Below, piece after piece: positions 20,289-48,416 of a stretch of 64,000 bases of DNA (position 1 is the stretch's first letter; the number at the start of each line of letters is the position of its first letter). Location of the stretch: the NCBI GenBank assembly GCA_963774445.1, contig CAVZFC010000035.1, positions 197,470-261,469 of the forward strand, given 5' to 3'. Source of the DNA: an uncultured delta proteobacterium (GTDB taxonomy: Bacteria; Myxococcota_A; Polyangia; Haliangiales; Haliangiaceae). Made by a program: the position numbers and the translations under genes. Below the pieces are notes generated by a model that was not told the origin of the DNA, did no database searches, and saw only the letters and a list, made by a program, of their open reading frames with translations.

Positions 20289-21503
20289 TCATTGGCACCA
20301 GTAGCCGATCGTGTCGCCCGCCCACTGGCACATGAGGCTGTCGGCGGCGCAGTCGCGCGTGCGCTCCTGCCCGGCTTCGCACCAGTGGACGACTTGGCCG
20401 TCGCAGCGGCCGAAGAAGTCGAGGCCCGGGCACGGATCGTCAACGCAGTAGACCCCAAGTCGGGCCTCGACCACGTCACAGCGCTGTCCGCACGCGGCGC
20501 AGTCGCGGCTACGCGATAAACCCTGCTCGCACCACCGGGCGACGTCGCCGTCGCAGGCGCCGTAGCCGTCAACCCCTTCGCACGAGTCCGGGCCGGAGAT
20601 ACAGCGGTAGCCGGCCGCCGTTGCGTCCCAGCCGCAGTGGGTTCCCGCGGCGCAGGCGTCGCTCTGGACCGCGTCGCCCGCGCAGTAGACCGCGGCGCCG
20701 TCGAAGCAGCGACCAAGGGCGTCAACGGTGTCGCAGCCGGCGGCGTCGACAATCGTCGGGCCGGTGTAGCCCTCGATCCAAATCCGGTTGGTGTCAACGC
20801 GCGCGAAGTGGTCGATGCCCAGGCAGCTTTCGGCCCCCTTGCTGAGCGCTCCGGCGACGCGAATCGTGCCGTCGTCCTCCATCACCAGCAGCGGCCCGCC
20901 CGAGTCCCCGAAGCAGGTGCCGTGGACTCCCTCACCGTCGATGGCGACGGTGGTATCGGCGACATCGACGATCGGCTCAGCGGTGAACAGTCGCGTGCCG
21001 CTGTCGCCGGTCTCGGTCCGGCCGTATCCAGACGCCTCGGCGGTGCGCCCGATCCAGCTGGCGTCGAGCGCCTGGGTCTCGATCGACAGCGGCACGATCG
21101 ACGGCAACAGCGCGCGCGGATCGCTGGCCAGCTCGACGAGCTCGAGATCCGCCTCCGGTGCGTCAACCACGCGACTCGCCGCGACGCACTGATCGGGCGA
21201 GGCGGGGAGGGTGCCGACGCAGAACGAGGTCCCCACCGGCACGCCGCAGTGCGCGGCGGTGAGCACCCACGTCGGCGCGATGAGCGATCCGCTGCACGGG
21301 CCGAAGGTGCCGATTGCCTGGATCTGTCCGGGCGAGAGCGGCAGGTACTGCGGTGCGGTGGTGCCGTTGTAGATCCGCAGCGCCGAACGGACATCGCCGC
21401 ACGTGTCGGTGCCGGCCGGTCGCTCGTTGTCGCCGCAGGCCCCCGCGCAGACGACTATGGATCCCGCTAGCAGGAGCGCGGGCGACACCGGTCGGCCAGC
21501 CAC
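20289..21503 (-). CDS. secreted trypsin-like (S1) serine protease with three C-terminal cysteine-rich repeats
   Basis: Catalytic triad context LTAAHC…GDSGGPL and a lipobox signal. C-terminal repeats have the form GRCdG…V.WCe.G…RDCA. Confidence 0.85.
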   Translation of the reverse strand: MAGRPVSPALLLAGSIVVCAGACGDNERPAGTDTCGDVRSALRIYNGTTAPQYLPLSPGQIQAIGTFGPCSGSLIAPTWVLTAAHCGVPVGTSFCVGTLPASPDQCVAASRVVDAPEADLELVELASDPRALLPSIVPLSIETQALDASWIGRTAEASGYGRTETGDSGTRLFTAEPIVDVADTTVAIDGEGVHGTCFGDSGGPLLVMEDDGTIRVAGALSKGAESCLGIDHFARVDTNRIWIEGYTGPTIVDAAGCDTVDALGRCFDGAAVYCAGDAVQSDACAAGTHCGWDATAAGYRCISGPDSCEGVDGYGACDGDVARWCEQGLSRSRDCAACGQRCDVVEARLGVYCVDDPCPGLDFFGRCDGQVVHWCEAGQERTRDCAADSLMCQWAGDTIGYWCQ

Positions 21504-21528
21504 TGCCGCCAGGATAGCTCATTGTCCG

Positions 21529-30985: not shown

Positions 30986-33016
30986 TCAGCCTTCCGTGGG
31001 CTCGTCGGGTGCATCCCCCAGGCCGAGCAGGGCGCGGATGTCAACGCCGCCATTGGTCCGGCCGGGGGCGAGCGGCAGGTGTGCGAGCAGACGCGCGGCG
31101 ACATCGGCGACGCTGTCGCCGCCGAGGATCGCCAGCGGCGACAGGTTGCGCGACAGCTCGCCGGCGAGCTTCTGGCCGGCCACGGTTCGCAACGTGGCGA
31201 CCAGCTCGGGGGCGATCGCTTCCATCTCGGTGCGAAAGGCAGCAGCGCGGGCTTCCAGGCGGCGGCGCTCGACCTCGCTATCTTCGGCGGCCAGAGCGAG
31301 GCGGGTTCGCTCGAGGCGATCCAGGGCGTCGGCCTCGGCGGCGGCGCGGCCCACGCGCTCCAGCCGGTCAACCTCGACGCGGGTGCCGGCCTCGGCCAGC
31401 GCCAGCTCGCGGGCGCGCGCCTCCAGCGCGGCCCGGGCGGTGTCGGTCTCGGCGCGGGCCTCGAGGATCGCCCGCTCGACCCGCTGCTCGAGCTCCTGAT
31501 CGCCCAGTCGCAGCTCGGCCTGCTTGCGCGTGATGTCCGAGACAATCGCCACCCGCTGGGCGTCGCACAGGAGGTCGTCGACATCGTCGTCGAGGATGCG
31601 CACGTCGAGTACCTCGACGTCGTAGACCCACAGGCCGTTTTCGGCGAAGTGGCGGCCCTCACGCTCGCCGCCGTCGGTGCGCGCACCGAGGACGGCCGTG
31701 CGCAGGACGTCGGTCGACCGGGCGTGGAACGACTCGATCGGCGTCGCCCGCGCGGCGGCGCGAATGATCGACGCCAGGTGGTCGCACAGCAGGCCGACGT
31801 AGTCCTTGACGTTGAACCAGCGCTCGCTGTCGCCGGCGAACGACACCCGGTACGACAGGTCGACCTCCAGCCCGACGTGGTCGGCGGTCTTGACGGCGAC
31901 GCGGTCCGAGACCTTGTTGCCCTGGATGCGCAAGAAACAGGTGGGCAAGAGCGTGTCGTCCGACTTGGGTCGTCCCGTCGACAGCGTCAGCGTTTCGAGC
32001 TCCTCGTCGTAGGCGAGCACGCGCGTGGTCGGCCCGATCACCACCTCGCGGCGATCGCGTGCGGTGACCATGACCGCGGTGCTGGGCGGCACGTAGATGG
32101 TGGGCGCGCGATCGTCGCCCGCGGCGGCGACCTGGTAGTGCGCGCGGGTCGCCGGATCCAGCCGCCGCCGCACCAGCTCCTCGCGAGTCGGGTTGACCAG
32201 GTAGGTGCGCGGCCCGGCGACGGTGGCGATCCGCCCGCTGGCGCGATCGCGGACGTAGATCGCCTCGCGCTCGGCCAGCGCGATCGGCTCGACGACGCCG
32301 ACCACCTCGAGCGCCTCGGTGGGAAAGAAGTAGCCCTCGCACCCGCGGAGGAACAGATCCTGTCCCGGCTGGTAGTGGCCCGGCGGCACCTGGTCGCCAT
32401 CGGCGGCATCGAACGGCGCGCTGACCCGCAGGTGCAAACCGCCGCGGCCATCCAGGCGCCAGGCCTGGCGCTCGTAGCGGCCGCCGGCGTTGGGCACCAC
32501 CTCGCGCCCGCTGGGCGGGACGTAGAACGACACGTCGCTGCCGCGGATGATGCTCTCGGTGCCGATCGGCGTGCCCGAGCCGTCGTCGTCGTAGACGCGA
32601 ACCACCAGGTACTCGTCGTCGCGAAGCTGGTGGCCGTCGATCACCTGCGCGCGCTGTCCCGGCCACAGGGGAAAGCGGGCGGGGCCGGGCACGACGATCG
32701 TCCGCCCCATGCGCAGCGGCACCGCCGAGCAGGCGCCCTTGACCGGTGTCGCGTCGGCGTCGGCGGCCGGGTTCTCGAGGATGATGTACTGCGACGAGCT
32801 GGCCTCGACGAACGGGTGCACGCCGAGGCCGGCCTCGTCGCCGCGCACCGGGGCGAACCGACCGTCGCGCAGGATCACCATGCGCTCGGTGTTCGACAGG
32901 CTGATCTTGGTAGGCCCGACGTAAAGGACGATGTCGCCCTTGGTCAGGTCTTGCACGTAGGCGTACTCGTTGGGCGCGACCAGGATGTCGCGTTCGCGGA
33001 CTTCACGTTCACTCAT
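30986..33016 (-). CDS. major vault protein (MVP) homolog
   Basis: Multiple MVP repeat domains ([54 protein letters not shown]). The shoulder domain matches [11 protein letters not shown]…[19 protein letters not shown] and [24 protein letters not shown]…LRTAVLG. A C-terminal coiled-coil cap-helix is also present. Confidence 0.85.
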   Translation of the reverse strand: [676 protein letters not shown]

Positions 33017-33176
33017 GCGGTGTCTCCTCCGGCTGTTCACCGGAAGGAAGAGCAACGCGCGTGCCGCGGGCAAGTGGGCGAAAGCGCGTCGGGCGCTTGC
33101 GCCGCTGCGGCGCAGCTGCGCCGCCCCGAAGCAGCGCCGGCGGTTTTCTTGCCGCCTGCGCGTGCCTGTACCTACA

Positions 33177-33629
33177 ATGTCCTACATGTTCGACATCTTC
33201 GACGTAAGTTCGCAGAAACGTTCCAATCCGCGGATTCCGGTCGAGGCGTTCTGCACGGAGATTGTTGACAACGACGGGGCGGAGGCGCTCCGCCACGGGG
33301 TGGTCGTAGACCTTTCGGCCGAGGGGCTGCGCATCCAGCGGCCGCTCTTCGGTCGAATGCCGCGGCTGGTGCGGCTCGAGCTCGAGCTGCCCGAGGTCGA
33401 CGAGGTGATGTGGGCGCAGGGCGCCGTCCGATTCGACGAGATCTGGCGACTGCCGCGGGGCGCCGACGGCGGCCTGTCGGGCGTGGTTCGCACCACCGGG
33501 ATCGAGATCGTTTCGGCGGCGTCGCGCCACCGGCGGATGCTGAACGAGTACGTCGTCGAGAGCTGGCGGCGCGCGCGCGCCGAAGAAGAGGGGTGGTTGC
33601 TCAACGCCTCCTGCTACCTGCGCGGCTGA
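33177..33629 (+). CDS. PilZ-domain protein
   Basis: RxxxR…D.S..G arrangement (RIPVEAFCTEIV…GVVVDLSAEGLRIQ). Divergent from the MVP gene. Confidence 0.6.
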   Translation: MSYMFDIFDVSSQKRSNPRIPVEAFCTEIVDNDGAEALRHGVVVDLSAEGLRIQRPLFGRMPRLVRLELELPEVDEVMWAQGAVRFDEIWRLPRGADGGLSGVVRTTGIEIVSAASRHRRMLNEYVVESWRRARAEEEGWLLNASCYLRG

Positions 33630-33638
33630 CGGCGCCGA

Positions 33639-35205
33639 TCAATCCTGGCCGGCGAACGCGCCCTGCTCGACATCGGTCGGCGTGCCGTCCGGCTGCCAGT
33701 AGTGCCAGGTGCCGACGCGGGCGCCGTCGCGGTAGTCACCCTGGGCGGCGAGCTGGCCGTTGGGGTGCCACTCGCGGTACGGGCCGTTCTCCTTCTGTCG
33801 GACGAAGACCCCTTCGGCCCAGCGCGAGCCGTCGTCGCGGTAGGCGGTGAAGCGGGCCTCGGCGCCGCGCTTCGAGTAGGTCGTCTCGCGCACCAGGCGG
33901 CCGTCTTCGTACGTCTTCCACCGTCCGTCCTTGGCCCCGGCGACGTAGCTGCCCTCCGCGGCGACCGCGCCGTCGGGCTGGTAGTGCACCCAGTGGCCGG
34001 TCATCTGGCCGCCGGCGAAGGCGCCGCGCGACTTGACCGAGCCGCTGGCGTACCACTCGGTCCACGGGCCGTGCTTGGCGCCACGGCGCTCGCACCACTG
34101 GGCGCGGCTGTCGGGCGGCGGCGCGCCGTGAAGCGAGGTACCGGCGGGGCAGGGGCCGTGATTCTCCGCGGTGGCGCCTGTGCGGCTGCAGCCGGTGGCG
34201 AGCAGCGCGATCAGGCCGAGGAGCAGCCACCACGAGGCGGGGCCGCCCGTGCTGCAACCGCCGCCACCGCACGGGCGGTAGCAGCTGCAGTTGGCTGCAC
34301 AGACGCCGCCACCGCAGTCTGCGTCGGTCGTGCAGCTGCCAGCAAAGCTGCCCGGCTCCATGCCGGCCAGGCCGCAGCGGCCGTCGTCGGCGCAGGCCGT
34401 GCCGGCCGGGCAATCGCCGTCGGTGGTGCAGGTCGAGTCGCACAGCGAGTCGCCTGCGCCGAGTGGCGCTCGCGCTCCGGGCGCCGCGACGCCGTCGATC
34501 GCGCGGAGCGTGTCCTGGATCCAGGCGCGGTCGACGTCGAGCCGCGCGTTGACGCTGGTGAGCGCACAGTCGGGATCTCCCGAGACGGTGACGCCGGCGA
34601 TCGTGTCGCCGGCTGCGCTCGCGCGCAGCACCGGGCCGCCGCTGTCGCCCTCGCAGCTGTTGGCCGGCGCCGGGGTGGCGACGAACGTCAGCGGCCTCAG
34701 CTCGGACACCTGCGAGCTGCCCTGCCGCCGCGTGCCAGTGACGTCCGTGTCGTCGACGCCGAAGCCGACGACGCGCACGCTCTCGCCGACGAAGGTGCTG
34801 TCCAGCGCGCGATCGTCGATGGGCAGCGGCGCGACGCCGACGACCGGCTGGCGCAGCGACAGGATCGCCAGGTCGTGATCGGCCGCGGCGTGGGCCGGAT
34901 GCGGCCACGCCTGCTCGACCTCGATCCGATCGCCGTCGCCGCCTACCTGCGACCCGACGAATAGCTGGAGGGTTCCGGGCGGCGCCAGGTCGAACGCAGT
35001 GTGCGGCGGTCAGGACCGCGCGCGGGCCGATCAGGGCGCCGCTGCACAGCACCTGCTCGCTATCGCCACACGAGAGCGGCGGCGCGATCAGCGCGACCGC
35101 CGCCGCATCCGCGGTCGCCGGCTCACCGCCGACGACGGCGGCGCCGACGACGCCTCGCGATGGCTGGCGCTGGCACGCCGACGCCATGGCCACGAGCGCG
35201 GTCAT
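33639..35205 (-). CDS. trypsin-like S1 protease (split across two frames near 34995) with a Cys-rich extension, a MYXO-CTERM-like hydrophobic segment and C-terminal MORN repeats
   Basis: LTAAHC is in track ORF 33736..35427. The Asp region (HDLAILSL) and GDSGGP are in the frame of ORF 33639..34778. The single reading frame continues through CGGGGCSTGGPASWWLLLGLIALLATGCS into MORN repeats (GPWTEWYASG…, GPYREWHPNGQ…). Confidence 0.6.
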
Positions 35206-35209
35206 CACG

Positions 35210-35929
35210 CTAGCAGCAGTTGTAGCTGGAGAACGAATAGTCGTCGCTCGCGGCCCACCAGCTGCCGAGCCCGTAGTCGTGCTTGGCGCAGTCTTGCGTG
35301 TAGGTGCCCGTGGTGTAGCCGGAGCACTCGTTGTCGGAGCCGCAGCCGACGCCGCAACGTCCCTTGCACGCGTTGCCACTGCCGCCGGTGCACGACGTGG
35401 ACTGACCCGCCTGGCGGTAGTAGCCACTGCCGATGTACTGGGTCTTGCAGGTGCAGGAGATGTGAACCCACCCGCGCTGACTGACGAAGGTTCCCGCCTC
35501 GAGCGCCTCTCCCGCGGGGACGATGTGCATCAGGCTGGTGACGCGAACCGCGACGTCTTCCACCAGCGGGCGCTGGTCGGCGCTCGCCGCCAGCTCCGGT
35601 TGCAGCTCCTCGTAGAACGCCTCGAGGGCCGACTTCTGGTCCTCGCGCAGCGCCCCGGTGTTTGGGTCGAAGTCGCCGGTCCCCTCGTTGTAGTCGAGGT
35701 GGAACGCGATCAGCTGGTCACCGAAATCGTAGGTGACGTCGACGACGTTGCTCTCGCTCTCGACGAACTGGAAGGCCAGGTCGACGCCGAAGCCGCGGTA
35801 GGTGCCCGACAACTCCGTCTGGTCGTGGGCGGCGATCGACAGGCCATCTCCGGCCGGTCCGGGCGCTGGTTCCTGGCCGGTACAACCGGCGGCAGCAAGA
35901 ATCGCGGCAATAATCGTTACTCGTAGCAT
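35210..35929 (-). CDS. lipoprotein with a Cys-rich C-terminal region
   Basis: Lipobox ILAAAGC and a C-terminus SCTCKTQ…CTGGSGNACKGRCGVGCGSDNEC…SSYNCC. Lies 4 bp upstream of the second S1 protease gene. Confidence 0.6.
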   Translation of the reverse strand: MLRVTIIAAILAAAGCTGQEPAPGPAGDGLSIAAHDQTELSGTYRGFGVDLAFQFVESESNVVDVTYDFGDQLIAFHLDYNEGTGDFDPNTGALREDQKSALEAFYEELQPELAASADQRPLVEDVAVRVTSLMHIVPAGEALEAGTFVSQRGWVHISCTCKTQYIGSGYYRQAGQSTSCTGGSGNACKGRCGVGCGSDNECSGYTTGTYTQDCAKHDYGLGSWWAASDDYSFSSYNCC

Positions 35930-40072: not shown

Positions 40073-40267
40073 ATGCGCGTCGAGCCTCGAGGAGAGATCG
40101 CGCTCCTGCGACTGGAGGCGGGCAATGCCAATGCCTTCGGTCGAGCGCTGATCGCCCGCCTGGCCGGCCGGGTCGACGAGGTGGTCGGATCCGGTACACG
40201 TGGGCCGGTCATGCCCGGCTACGGGCAGCGCCGCCTGCGCGCCGCCGTGGCGAGGCTCGGGGCCTAG
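40073..40267 (+). CDS. small hypothetical protein (64 aa)
   Basis: Protein-like composition; the stop overlaps the next start by 1 nt. Confidence 0.25.
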   Translation: MRVEPRGEIALLRLEAGNANAFGRALIARLAGRVDEVVGSGTRGPVMPGYGQRRLRAAVARLGA

Positions 40268-41157
40268 TGCTGTTGCGCCGGCTCCTGGTCGTCGACCAGC
40301 GACCACTGTTGCGCGAGTGCGACGCGCTGATCGAGGCGATGGCGGCGTCCTCTCCCGAGGCGTCTGCCGAGGAGCTCGACGGCTGCGTCGGCGCGGTGAT
40401 GCATCGGCTCGACGACGCCCGCCTGTCCGGCTCGCCCGGCGGAGAGGTGCTGGCCCAGCGGATCCGCGGGCAGCTCGAATTCGGCAACACCAACGGCGCC
40501 CGCGCCGTGATCCGCGCGCACGTGCCGGCGCAGTCGCCCGCCTGGCCGGTCCTGCTGCCGGTGCTGCTGGGCGGCGGCGGGCTGACGCTGGCGCTGATCG
40601 GGCCGCTGTTCCTCCCCTTGAGTCGCGTGGCCCGGCTGTTCCTGTTGGGCCTGGGCGCGGGCGGCACGGTGGTCGTTGTCACCGCGGCGATGGCGGTGGC
40701 GCGTTTTCGCCGCCATTTCCCCACCGCGGTGGTCGCCTCCGACGAGCTGGTAGAGCTCGAGCAGTCGCTCGACGACGAGCGCTTTGCCGTCGCGTCGGTG
40801 TCGTTCGAGCGGTTGCGCGAGCTCGCCGACGAGCATCCCGATGAAGCCGAGCTCCTCTCGGTCGTGCTCCTTCGCGGCGCCGCCGAGGTGGCGCGGGCGC
40901 CTCGGGTGGATCTGGAGCTGGCCGAACAGTCCCTCGACGCCGTCACGATGGCGCTGCGCTCGCCGGTGGCGTCCGAGCGTGGGCTCTATTTCGCGACCCT
41001 GGCGCTAGGGGGCCTGGCCGAACGCCTGGCGGTCTCGCGGTCGGAGCGGGCTGACATCGCGCTGGCCCTGCTCGCCCAGCTCGCCGAGCGGCGCACCGAA
41101 TACGGCTGGGTCCTGGCCAGCGCCCGTCGCCGCGTCGAACGCGCGCGCCGCGACTAG
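40267..41157 (+). CDS. hypothetical membrane protein (2 TM helices)
   Basis: The hydrophobic segments PVLLPVLLGGGGLTLALIGPLFL and LFLLGLGAGGTVVVVTAAMAV are flanked by helical charged regions. Confidence 0.5.
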   Translation: MLLRRLLVVDQRPLLRECDALIEAMAASSPEASAEELDGCVGAVMHRLDDARLSGSPGGEVLAQRIRGQLEFGNTNGARAVIRAHVPAQSPAWPVLLPVLLGGGGLTLALIGPLFLPLSRVARLFLLGLGAGGTVVVVTAAMAVARFRRHFPTAVVASDELVELEQSLDDERFAVASVSFERLRELADEHPDEAELLSVVLLRGAAEVARAPRVDLELAEQSLDAVTMALRSPVASERGLYFATLALGGLAERLAVSRSERADIALALLAQLAERRTEYGWVLASARRRVERARRD

Positions 41158-41285
41158 CAGCCCGGGGGCTCGGCCCGGCCGGGGTCGGGCGACCGCAGGC
41201 GGGGGGCGGGCTCCCAGCGAGACCGGCGCAAGCCACTGGAATTACACGGCGAGAAGTTGGCCCCAGGGTCGCACTACAGTTCGCC

Positions 41286-41939
41286 ATGCTACGTGCGGGT
41301 GTCGCCATTGCTCTCTCCTGCCTCCTCGGCTCGTCGGCGTGGGCGCACACGCGTCTCACCTATCCGGCCCCGCGCAGCCCCAGCGACGGGCTCAAGACCG
41401 GCCCGTGCGGCGGCGTGCCCCCCGGCACGCCCAACCTGATCGCGGTCGGCTCGACCATCACCGTGGTGTGGAACGAGACCATCGATCACCCCGGCTACTT
41501 CCGCATCGCCTGGTCGCCGCCCGGTGACCAGGGCTTCGAGGAGAACATCCTCCTCGACCAGATCCAGGATCAGGTCTGCACCGCGCCGCCGTGCGAGTAC
41601 CGGGCCGACGTGACCCTGCCGGACCAGCCGTGCACCGGCTGCGCACTGCAGATCATCCAGTTCATGGGCACGGCCGCGCCGTACTCGCCGTACTTCTCCT
41701 GCGCCGACGTCGACCTGGTCGACCCCTCCGAGATTCCCGACGCCGGGCCGCCGATGAGCGATGCCGGCGCCAGTGGTAGCGACCCCGACGCGGGGGTCGC
41801 GGGCGACGGCGACGCGGGCATCGGCGGCGGCGCCGCAACCGGCGTCAACGGTGGATGCGCGGCGGGCGGGCAGGGCGGCAGTGGCTTCCTCGCGCTGCTC
41901 GGTCTGGCGCTGGTCGTGGCGCGCCGTCGCCGCTCCTAG
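41286..41939 (+). CDS. secreted His1 (LPMO-like/copper-binding candidate) protein with a MYXO-CTERM sorting tail
   Basis: Signal peptide cleavage is predicted at SAWA|HTRLTYPAPRS, leaving an N-terminal His. A second His lies in TIDHPGYFRIAW. The C-terminus GGCAAGGQGGSGFLALLGLALVVARRRRS is a MYXO-CTERM tail. Confidence 0.65.
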   Translation: MLRAGVAIALSCLLGSSAWAHTRLTYPAPRSPSDGLKTGPCGGVPPGTPNLIAVGSTITVVWNETIDHPGYFRIAWSPPGDQGFEENILLDQIQDQVCTAPPCEYRADVTLPDQPCTGCALQIIQFMGTAAPYSPYFSCADVDLVDPSEIPDAGPPMSDAGASGSDPDAGVAGDGDAGIGGGAATGVNGGCAAGGQGGSGFLALLGLALVVARRRRS

Positions 41940-46474: not shown

Positions 46475-48416
46475 ATGTCGGGGATGTTCCTGGTGCTCGC
46501 CTCGCTGGTCGTCTCCAACGGCGTCTCCGTGGCCCACTGCGACGGCAGCGGTCGGGTCGACTCGCTGCGCGCGCATCTGTACGCGGCGCGCGACGCCGGG
46601 ACGCCCACGGTCGAACGGATGGGCGCGCTCTACTTCGGCGTGCGCTCGGGCGGCACCAACGCCTGGCTCGACGGCGACGCCCCCGACGCGTCGGGCTACC
46701 TGGGAGACGGCGGCGTCGCGACCATGACGTGGGAGCGCGACGGCCTCCGCGTCACCGAATATCTGTTCGCGTCGTTCGCGACCGAGGCGCCGCACCTGGT
46801 CGCGCTGCTCGAGGTGACCAACACCGGCAGCGCGGCGCTGGCCGACGCGGCGATCTTCTCGCTCGAGCAGACCGTCGCCGGCGGCGACGAGAGCGCGACC
46901 TGGACCGGCGGCGCGTTCGAGGAGCGCGGCGACGTGCTGCTGCTCCACCGCCCGCTGGGCGCGCTGGCTCATCACGCGATCGATCCGCGGGCGCAGGTCG
47001 ACGCGGGCGGTCACCTGGCCGATGCCGACACGACGGGGCCGATGCCGTCCCTGGCGGTCGGCTTCGAGTGGGCGCTCGACGGACTGGTGCCCGGAGCATC
47101 GCGCACGGTCGGCGTGATCGTTGGCGTGCGCGACGACGGCGATCGCGCCGCGCTGGACGCCGGTCTCGCCGCCGTGGCGTCGGACCCCGCGCAGGCGCTG
47201 GCCGACGCGCGCGCCGACTGGGACGACTTCTTCGCCCGCGCGGCCGAGCCGCCGGGGCTCGACGGCGACGAGCGCGCGGTCTACCGCCGCTCGCTGGCGC
47301 TCCTGCGCATGGCCCAGGTGCGCGAGGCGGGCGCGCCTGCCGGGCAGATCGTCGCCGCGCTCTATCCGCTGGCCGCCGGGCGGGCGTGGGTGCGCGACGA
47401 GGCCTATGCCGCGCGGGCGCTGGTGCGCGCCGGGCTGCTCGACGAGGCGCGGGCGGCGCTGGCGTTCGTGCTGGCGGCCGGCGCCGGTACCTACCAGAGC
47501 GAGATCGGCGAGCCGTACGCCGTCAGCGTGCTGCGCCAGCGCGGTGACGGCAGCGAGGAGAGCGACGACACCGGCGCCGGGCCGCTGGTCGGCATCGACG
47601 GCTTCGGCCTGGTGCTCGGCGCGGTCAACGAGTACGTCCAGGCCAGCGGCGACACCGCGTTCGCCAGCGACCGAGCCGAGGCGCTGTTCGACCTGACGGC
47701 CACGGTGCTGACCCACCGCATCGACGTCAACGACACGCTGCTGGTCCGCCCCGACAACTCGGTGTGGAACGGCGACCGGCGCAAGTACACCTTCAGTCAG
47801 GCGGCCACGGTGTGGGGCCTGCGCGCGGCGGTGCGGCTGGCCTCCGGCGATGCGCGCGCCGACTCGTACCGCGGGGCCGCAGAATCTGTTTGCCGGCGCC
47901 ATCGCCCAGCGCCTGGTCAACGGCGGCGTGCTGACCGGCGCGCTCGAGCGCGCCGCCGGGCGGCTCGACAGCGCCGCGACGCAGGCGTTCCTCTGGGAGG
48001 TGTTGCCGCCCGACGGCGACGTCGCCCGCGCCACCCTCGACGCTGTCAACCAGGCGCTGCGGCTGCCCGACGGCAGCTACCGGCGCAACGACGAGGCGCC
48101 CGCCGAGGCGTCGCCGACCGCGGCGCTGTGGCTGGCGATGGCCAACGCTCGCGCGGGCAACGACGACCGGGCGGCCGAGATCTTGGCCGGCGTCACTGCC
48201 CGGGCCCGGACGCGCGCCGACCTCGTCGCCGGCGCCGACGGGGAGCCGGTGATCGGCCTGGGCGCCGGGTTGTTCGTCCTGGCCGCCTGGGATCGGCCGG
48301 CGGCCGCGGGCGGCGGCGGGTGTGGATGCGGCAGCGGCGGCCCCGGCGGCGGTGCGCTCCTCTTGCTCGCCGTGGCCGCCGGCCTGCGCCGTCAGCGCCG
48401 CGCGGTCGGGCCGTGA
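46475..48416 (+). CDS. GH15-like six-hairpin glycosidase (glucoamylase/glucodextranase-like) with a MYXO-CTERM tail; split across two frames near 47850-47890
   Basis: The N-terminal ~470 aa are in track ORF 46475..48493 and the C-terminal part is in ORF 47850..48416 (different frame). The tail GGGGCGCGSGGPGGGALLLLAVAAGLRRQRR is a MYXO-CTERM. Confidence 0.6.

Follow-up and report, generated by a model that had tools for sequence, protein, structure and literature searches.

A protease-MORN gene split between two frames

The 64,000-nucleotide (nt) stretch of DNA analysed here, hereafter the window, belongs to contig CAVZFC010000035.1 in the assembly GCA_963774445.1 of an uncultured delta proteobacterium of the family Haliangiaceae. 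On its minus strand, a gene at 33639..35205 encodes an S1 family protease followed by a Cys-rich spacer, a hydrophobic segment related to the MYXO-CTERM sorting tag, a lipobox and a module of MORN repeats, and the reading frame of this gene is interrupted by one extra base. The features of the gene are as follows (positions in the window):

33639..35205 (-): whole gene, with S1 protease, Cys-rich spacer, MYXO-CTERM-derived segment, lipobox and MORN module
35173..35205 (-): N-terminal MTALVAMASAC, resembling a short lipoprotein signal, its hydrophobic core weak and Lys and Arg absent
34999..35001 (-): codon of the catalytic His (LTAAHC), upstream frame; H67, invariant in the protein alignment
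34993..34994 (-): single extra base, TT against one base in the orthologues, where the frame changes (DNA alignment)
34872..34874 (-): codon of the catalytic Asp (DHDLAIL), downstream frame; D109, invariant in the protein alignment
34758..34778 (-): beginning of a 379-amino-acid (aa) open reading frame (ORF; P0001), opened by the GTG at 34776-34778, the first start codon of the downstream frame
34641..34643 (-): codon of the catalytic Ser (GDSGGP at 34632-34649), downstream frame; S186, invariant in the alignment
34269..34448 (-): Cys-rich spacer, common to free-standing MYXO-CTERM proteases and the distant relatives P0003 and P0004, deleted in the orthologous loci L001 and L081
34188..34271 (-): MYXO-CTERM-derived segment, CGGGGC-STGGPAS-WWLLLGLIALLA-TG-C (full segment CGGGGCSTGGPASWWLLLGLIALLATGCS)
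34254-34256 (-): signature Cys of this segment
34197-34232 (-): hydrophobic helix of this segment, 12 residues
34188-34190 (-): lipobox Cys
34092..34151 (-): motif CPAG..G.PP....WC, whose Cys pair is conserved and which stands at the head of the MORN module in free-standing homologues that are exported
33642..34073 (-): MORN_2 repeats, about five full and one partial (about 5.5 by eye)
33639-33641 (-): stop codon of the gene

The ATG at 35203-35205 (minus strand) lies 4 nt beyond the stop of the preceding gene and opens a frame that encodes MTALVAMASAC...LTAAHC (opening MTALVAMASACQRQ, up to CSGALIGPRAVLTAAHC) and becomes Arg-rich nonsense immediately past the catalytic His codon. The protease resumes in the next frame from 34994 downward (FDLAPPGTLQLF / FDLAPPGTLQLFVGSQ), and this downstream frame is closed by a stop shortly before the switch point. 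The catalytic triad is therefore not encoded in one continuous frame, His being in one frame and Asp and Ser in the next. In the downstream frame, 77 coding-like codons lack a start codon (G+C content at the three codon positions, 0.82/0.48/0.90). The database entry P0001 (379 aa) is the truncated product of this frame break and contains just the C-terminal part of the protease. A preliminary description, made from the sequence of the window before any database search, had assigned the His and the Asp/GDSGGP regions to different frames, put the switch within about 10 nt of 34995 and recognized a Cys-rich extension after the protease. These assignments hold, and the DNA alignment now puts the switch at 34993-34994.

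With one T removed, the translation comprises 522 aa with a leading GTG codon, or 521 aa from the ATG, and aligns end to end with the closest relative, an intact protein of 458 aa (P0002; 61% identity by BLAST and 76% in a global alignment, at full coverage). P0002 is encoded at locus L001 on a 422-kb contig of a metagenome-assembled genome, that of the uncultured delta proteobacterium MFD05684.bin.1.144. A second intact orthologue of 458 aa (P0216, 86% aa identity to P0002) comes from locus L081, a 6-kb contig in the Logan assembly of run SRR31012009. The neighbourhood of L001 matches that of the window, with genes for an M3 peptidase, a 203-aa protein, a 239-aa Cys-rich lipoprotein, the protease-MORN protein, a PilZ-domain protein on the opposite strand and a major-vault-protein-like protein, and L081 has the same order for its five complete genes. 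In both orthologues the junction between the modules is read in a single ORF, ...GGCSAGGRG(A/S)WWLLL(V/A)LVAL(LV/IA)GC(G/S)RTGAAERASGPCPAG..., and the same condensed junction is found in a partial metagenomic protein (P0083; ...GAGCSAAPGSGAGLGGAITLGLALLLVAAGGCRGANGQPSGHCPSD...). Because this single-ORF junction recurs in independent assemblies and in P0083, an assembly join in the window can be set aside; of the two explanations left side by side in the preliminary description, a genuine protease-MORN chimera and an assembly-error fusion, the uninterrupted ORFs of P0002 and P0216 sustain the former and speak against the latter.

The protease and MORN modules

The protease module of the repaired translation matches Pfam Trypsin (PF00089) with 71.2 bits against a cut-off of 20.6, and the catalytic His, Asp and Ser follow each other in the expected motifs (LTAAHC, DHDLAIL and GDSGGP; H67, D109 and S186 are invariant). 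In the AlphaFold2 (AF2) model of the orthologue P0002, the predicted local distance difference test score (pLDDT) of the protease is mostly 85-97, and Foldseek matches of the model to kallikrein, thrombin and trypsin (E about 1e-13, target-normalised template modelling score about 0.76) identify the trypsin-like two-barrel fold. The N-terminal signal is less clear in the window clade than in more distant relatives, in which lipoprotein signals are readily recognized (P0003, MKLAFLALLAISC; P0004, MK..LLALLAGC; P0071, MRLLLVALLASAC): on a crude hydrophobicity scale, the N-terminal 12-mers of the window clade score +3.0 to +4.8 kcal/mol versus -1.3 to +1.2 in the relatives.

Another S1 protease, the first of the window, is encoded at 20289-21518 (minus strand; Trypsin, 3e-15). 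It has long C-terminal Cys-rich repeats and no MYXO-CTERM tail, and is about 30% identical to P0002, the orthologue of the second protease.

Past the junction, the protein continues in frame into the MORN repeats, as the preliminary description had it; in place of its estimate of about six, we count about 5.5 MORN_2 repeats before the stop at 33639-33641. On the repaired protein, the Pfam family MORN_2 (PF07661) scores 40.4 bits against a cut-off of 29.6, with two stretches passing on their own, and in the AF2 model of P0002 the module is a beta-hairpin array with pLDDT above 90. The repeat type is shared with MORN_2/YwqK-type repeat lipoproteins (PF07661, COG2849; LIC20035-like adhesin, NF033566), although the window protein scores only 60 bits against the NF033566 cut-off of 250 and its module, unlike those lipoproteins, lacks a separate N-terminal signal and follows a protease in the same polypeptide. 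Free-standing MORN homologues share a CP.G..G.PP....C head with two Cys, and most of those with a readable N-terminus carry a signal peptide or a lipobox. Since these homologues are mostly exported proteins or lipoproteins, the MORN module of the window protein is most likely extracytoplasmic as well.

The junction combines a sorting tag with a lipobox

The MYXO-CTERM domain is made up of an invariant Cys, a helix that spans the membrane and an Arg cluster in the cytoplasm, and is cleaved by the myxosortase MrtX, probably once the Cys has been lipidated (PMC11980579; bioRxiv 10.1101/2023.06.07.544157); true MYXO-CTERM domains lie near the C-terminus (bioRxiv 10.1101/2023.06.07.544157). In the window protein the signature motif with the invariant Cys is present, CGGGGCS aligning from position 1 of the TIGR03901 profile, and is followed by the strongly hydrophobic WWLLLGLIALLA, which is merely 12-14 residues long and includes the most hydrophobic 12-mer among all the junctions compared. 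The Arg cluster is absent after the helix, its place being taken by TGCSRTGATAENHG. The segment aligns to positions 1-28 of the 34 profile positions with 16.2 bits, below the cut-off of 20, and the score rises to 32.0 bits when RRRRS is grafted in place of TGCS. This alignment, together with the gain on grafting, indicates that the segment is a MYXO-CTERM domain minus its Arg tail, and the resemblance, as judged from the profile comparison, exceeds what would be expected by chance. The tail without Arg-rich end or stop that the preliminary description had noticed is thus confirmed. As the segment is internal (206 residues, a short linker and the MORN module, follow the lipobox Cys), is devoid of an Arg cluster and does not reach the cut-off score, the protein falls outside the MYXO-CTERM family as defined. 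Since an LAxTG motif is missing from the segment, we disregarded a weak match to the NCBIfam model LAXTG_small_WW (16.9 bits; cut-off, 65).

Free-standing myxobacterial S1 peptidases of the same family (P0006 from Cystobacter fuscus, P0074 and P0075; 39-44% identity) share the Cys-rich spacer, the GC signature motif and the hydrophobic helix with the window protein. They terminate with an Arg cluster at 350-420 aa, whereas the window protein has no Arg cluster and continues for 206 residues. Canonical MYXO-CTERM tails with Arg clusters are encoded by two other ORFs of the window, at about 41055-41939 and at 47712-48416 (both on the plus strand; 26.1 and 24.7 bits), so the host uses the standard tag on other proteins.

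The end of the segment, ATGC, is a lipobox that the preliminary description had not mentioned. Judged by eye against the consensus, the pattern [LVI..][AST..][GAS]-C after a hydrophobic core is present as L-A-T-G-C in the window, L-V-G-C in P0002, I-A-G-C in P0216 and A-G-G-C in P0083, and both the lipobox Cys and the GC motif are kept in all four of these condensed-junction proteins. We read the junction, from its motifs, as a MYXO-CTERM domain condensed with a lipoprotein signal peptide, which likewise goes beyond the preliminary description. It is not a canonical lipoprotein signal, because it is internal, about 320 residues into the protein, and lacks an n-region: there is no Lys or Arg within 14 residues upstream in the window, nor is there an in-frame ATG, GTG or TTG near the lipobox segment in the window.

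Distant relatives and proposed origin of the fusion

Four more distant relatives (P0003, P0004, P0071 and P0217; 33-41% identity to P0002 in alignments) have the same modules in the same order, with a sorting-tag helix and a lipobox at the junction, and encode in one ORF a complete MYXO-CTERM domain, RRR, a lipoprotein signal peptide and the MORN module. The junction of P0003 reads SGGCAIGG...AAWLTIAILAMRALRRR-TIGPLALAALLSAC-SEPRGNCPEG and that of P0071 ...LALRRR-MKAGIVLLLLAGGGSLVGGC-HRPRGNCPDG, those of P0004 and P0217 being similar; cut at RRR, P0003 reaches the TIGR03901 cut-off with 20.1 bits. These four proteins keep two hydrophobic segments around RRR, plausibly a transmembrane hairpin, whereas the window clade has one: in the alignment with P0003 and P0004, three elements are missing from it, namely the RRR loop, the second stretch of hydrophobic residues and one of the MORN repeats.

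A related arrangement occurs in P0094 (L078 6001-7572; also L079), found on five contigs from different samples, in which a protease of the same family is followed by a MYXO-CTERM domain with RRRRR, a lipoprotein signal peptide and an unrelated passenger of about 100 aa. The sequence of P0094 suggests that a sorting tag followed by a lipoprotein signal is a reusable junction, independent of MORN repeats.

In one lineage, homologues of both halves of the window protein are encoded in the same order but by two genes. The S1 protease P0005 and the MORN lipoprotein P0126 are adjacent, 4 nt apart and in different frames (P0126 is on six contigs, four of which are shown as L073-L076); P0005 has no MYXO-CTERM domain and P0126 carries a signal peptide of its own, MRRLSSVALALGVVAIVSGC. 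Compared with the corresponding halves of P0004, the two proteins show 52% and 53% identity. The preliminary description had asked whether the protease and the MORN protein are separate genes at orthologous loci; the comparison returns a single ORF in L001 and L081 and separate adjacent genes in this lineage. At L073 5812-6192 and L074 4380-4760, between the stop of the protease gene and the sequence for the MORN signal peptide, the DNA looks AT-richer by eye than its surroundings; a local rearrangement or insertion may have split the genes, or they may never have been joined.

When 1.84 billion representative proteins were searched with a profile, both modules were spanned only by P0004 and P0071 (full-length), P0001 (truncated) and P0083 (partial), whereas free-standing MYXO-CTERM proteases of 350-420 aa were numerous. 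The few two-module matches indicate that the fusion is rare but recurrent. An origin by fusion follows from the relatives that keep both signals in one ORF and from the lineage that still has two genes. In the order of events that we propose, a MYXO-CTERM protease gene and an adjacent MORN lipoprotein gene would have fused in frame, and the stretch between the two hydrophobic segments would then have been deleted, condensing the junction.

Proposed topology and processing

We consider that the locus probably represents one genuine gene for a two-module envelope protein, in which a fused and then condensed junction would direct the processing of the precursor and which is broken here by a single base. 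The intact precursor would be exported and cut at the junction, by myxosortase at the GC motif and/or by signal peptidase II at the lipobox, and the products, at a fixed 1:1 ratio, would be a protease anchored at the surface and a MORN lipoprotein. The MORN module would serve as a binding partner of the protease, be it an anchor, a chaperone or an inhibitor; that the two modules work as partners is argued by the adjacent genes in the two-gene lineage.

For the relatives with two hydrophobic segments, a topology can be proposed that is self-consistent. The N-terminal lipoprotein signal would export the protease, the MYXO-CTERM helix would cross the membrane inward, with RRR staying in the cytoplasm, and the second segment would cross outward in the manner of a signal peptide, so that the lipobox Cys and the MORN module would come to lie in the periplasm. 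Given the biochemistry of the two signals (myxosortase acting after the Cys and signal peptidase II at the lipobox), we propose that each such precursor would yield two lipid-anchored proteins.

Several observations weigh against extending this scheme to the window clade. With a single hydrophobic segment of 12-14 residues, the two Cys motifs cannot both be periplasmic if the segment is an ordinary transmembrane helix, which makes dual cleavage of the condensed variant speculative. Export of the protease domain is not assured either, the N-terminal signal of the clade being weak and without Lys or Arg. Finally, the AF2 model of P0002 consists of two confident domains and a low-confidence linker with one helix (residues 263-274), and has no confident inter-domain contact (predicted template modelling score 0.58); lacking a confident protease-MORN docking, it is silent on the MORN module as an inhibitor. 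For the condensed form, we nevertheless prefer processing at one or both Cys motifs to the two readings that follow. The stronger proposal, that the condensed junction is a dual sorting element at which myxosortase and signal peptidase II yield two lipid-anchored proteins, making the gene product an envelope polyprotein, is offered as a tentative idea whose chances we rate as low; P0003, P0004, P0071, P0217 and P0094 might then, with the same reserve, represent the unreduced form of the device.

The first of the two other readings is that the protein remains uncleaved and spans the membrane once, with the protease and spacer outside, the segment as a stop-transfer anchor, the MORN module in the cytoplasm and the Cys motifs as relics. 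It accommodates the presence of just one segment between the domains, with the highest 12-mer hydrophobicity of the junctions compared, and of one helix in the flexible linker of the AF2 model. Nevertheless, we find it unlikely: most of the free-standing MORN homologues inspected are exported or are lipoproteins with the same Cys pair, the four condensed-junction proteins all keep the GC motif and the lipobox Cys, no positive cluster follows the segment, and 12-14 residues is the length of a signal peptide rather than that of a transmembrane helix.

According to the second, which seems to us more doubtful still, the protease is decaying in this clade and the MORN lipoprotein is the working product behind a dispensable leader, so that the frameshift is real and tolerated. 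The weak N-terminal signal, the loss of the Cys-rich spacer in the sister lineage and an Arg three residues before the hydrophobic core in P0002 and P0216 would agree with such decay, and the 379-aa ORF still encodes the segment and the MORN module. The ratio of nonsynonymous to synonymous substitution rates (dN/dS) is also higher in the protease (0.42-0.58) than in the MORN module (about 0.25). Yet past the His codon this ratio is 0.575 between the window and L001 and 0.435 between the window and L081, compared with 0.416 for the intact pair L001 and L081, and is well below 1, with no increase on the window branch; strong conservation (0.09-0.32; 0.26-0.32 for the window gene) extends over the 68 codons before the shift; the catalytic triad and the structural Cys residues are unchanged in all three species; and no start codon or ribosome-binding site lies near the segment. 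Internal initiation was also considered as a general explanation and rejected: P0003 and P0071 do have canonical Met-led signal peptides, but nothing usable is present in the window, P0002 or P0004.

The suggestion that a small deletion, introduced by an assembly error, wrongly joined separate genes for a MYXO-CTERM protease and a downstream MORN lipoprotein would explain the missing Arg-rich end and stop and could draw on the separate genes of one lineage, but is scarcely credible given that L001 and L081 come from different species, projects and assemblies and have the identical one-ORF junction, which P0083 carries too and which is in frame and conserved.

All the parts of the protein are already known, namely the S1 peptidase, the myxobacterial Cys-rich spacer, MYXO-CTERM, the lipobox and MORN_2, and the frame break is ordinary. 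Like the domains sorted by the MYXO-CTERM/MrtX system (TIGR03901; PMC11980579), the segment has a hydrophobic stretch behind the signature Cys motif. It differs in its internal position, the missing Arg cluster and the score of 16.2 against 20 bits, and cleavage by myxosortase is a proposal here. If the proposal is true, a C-terminal sorting tag and an N-terminal lipoprotein signal are chained in one polypeptide, which would deliver two envelope proteins at fixed stoichiometry, and we found no description of such chained-signal delivery in the searchable literature. The fusion is also a Rosetta-stone link that predicts a functional partnership between the S1 protease family and an uncharacterised family of MORN lipoproteins. 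The model NF058595, a 'lipo-invert putative C-terminal anchoring domain' (cut-off 37 bits), gave no match for the window protein and weak sub-threshold matches for P0094 (20 bits) and P0004 (9-11 bits); a literature search on 'lipo-invert' and internal lipobox retrieved no paper. We treat NF058595 as a lead that curators may have met related two-segment tails, not as a classification.

Cause of the extra base

In a DNA alignment with the syntenic orthologue L001 (82% nt identity), the extra base is the only 1-nt indel in the coding region, the window having CACTGCGTTCGAC where L001 has CATTGTG-TCAAC. The residues at the site are HCVNLAPPG in L001 and HCIDLAPPG in L081, and become HCVDLAPPG in the window when one T is removed. 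The extra base is specific to the window assembly, both nearest syntenic species being without it. Among 18 syntenic genes compared by tblastn, the protease-MORN gene alone is frame-split, and in a composition screen of the long, clearly coding-like ORFs of the 64 kb a coding-like leader before the first start was seen solely here. Apart from the frame break, the gene shows no sign of decay that we could recognize in its sequence.

The absence of the base from the two nearest species, combined with the lack of decay, leaves two causes, an indel that arose in assembly or consensus calling and a mutation of very recent date. We lean slightly towards the indel, and regard a very recent inactivating mutation as a realistic possibility. 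A point that tells against an indel artefact is that the extra base lies within a run of just two bases. Indels in long reads typically fall in long homopolymers. A systematic miscall of GTCGAC, the likely true sequence of the site, was rejected, since 73 intact GTCGAC sites are present in the window and no other break was flagged. A DNA pattern spanning the frameshift site, with 0 or 1 extra base allowed, had no match in the Joint Genome Institute (JGI) metagenomes, and a protein-guided scan of the same metagenomes returned relatives at no more than 34% identity and no second copy of the window species.

Programmed frameshifting, as a class of cause, we consider very improbable, and the same holds for its specific form, a +1 ribosomal shift at GUU CGA C that would restore the full-length protein, which we would hardly expect. 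In GC-rich genomes CGA is a rare Arg codon at which the ribosome could pause, a consideration that we did not count in its favour. The zero frame does stay open for about 420 more codons (alternative-frame ORF 33736..35427), with no stop forcing termination. On the other side, re-pairing of tRNA-Val on UUC is poor, and programmed frameshifting is made unlikely by a shift site that is not conserved, the two closest orthologues having no shift there, and by the lack of a Shine-Dalgarno-like stimulator in the bases just upstream.

Neighbouring genes

The gene directly upstream, at 35210..35929 (minus strand), encodes a lipoprotein of 239 aa whose C-terminal domain is rich in Cys (RGWVxIxC...CKGRCGxGCG...DCAxHDY) and for which no Pfam match was found. 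It is conserved directly upstream of the fusion gene in L001, L002 and L003, and L081 has a 239-aa gene at the same position, matched by position and size with the sequence unaligned. This lipoprotein is probably a third partner in the cassette.

On the other side, a PilZ-domain gene of 147 aa (33186-33629, plus strand) converges on the protease-MORN gene, the two stops being 9 nt apart, and is kept in L001 and L081. It is followed by a 695-aa major-vault-protein-like gene (30986-33073, minus strand; MVP_shoulder, 8e-30, and Vault_3), which has the same position in L001 and L081. Farther away, at 40073-40222 (plus strand), an enoyl-CoA hydratase gene is reduced to its residues 1-50; its counterpart at the syntenic L001 4403-5149 is intact (248 aa), and about 600 nt appear to have been deleted in the window genome.

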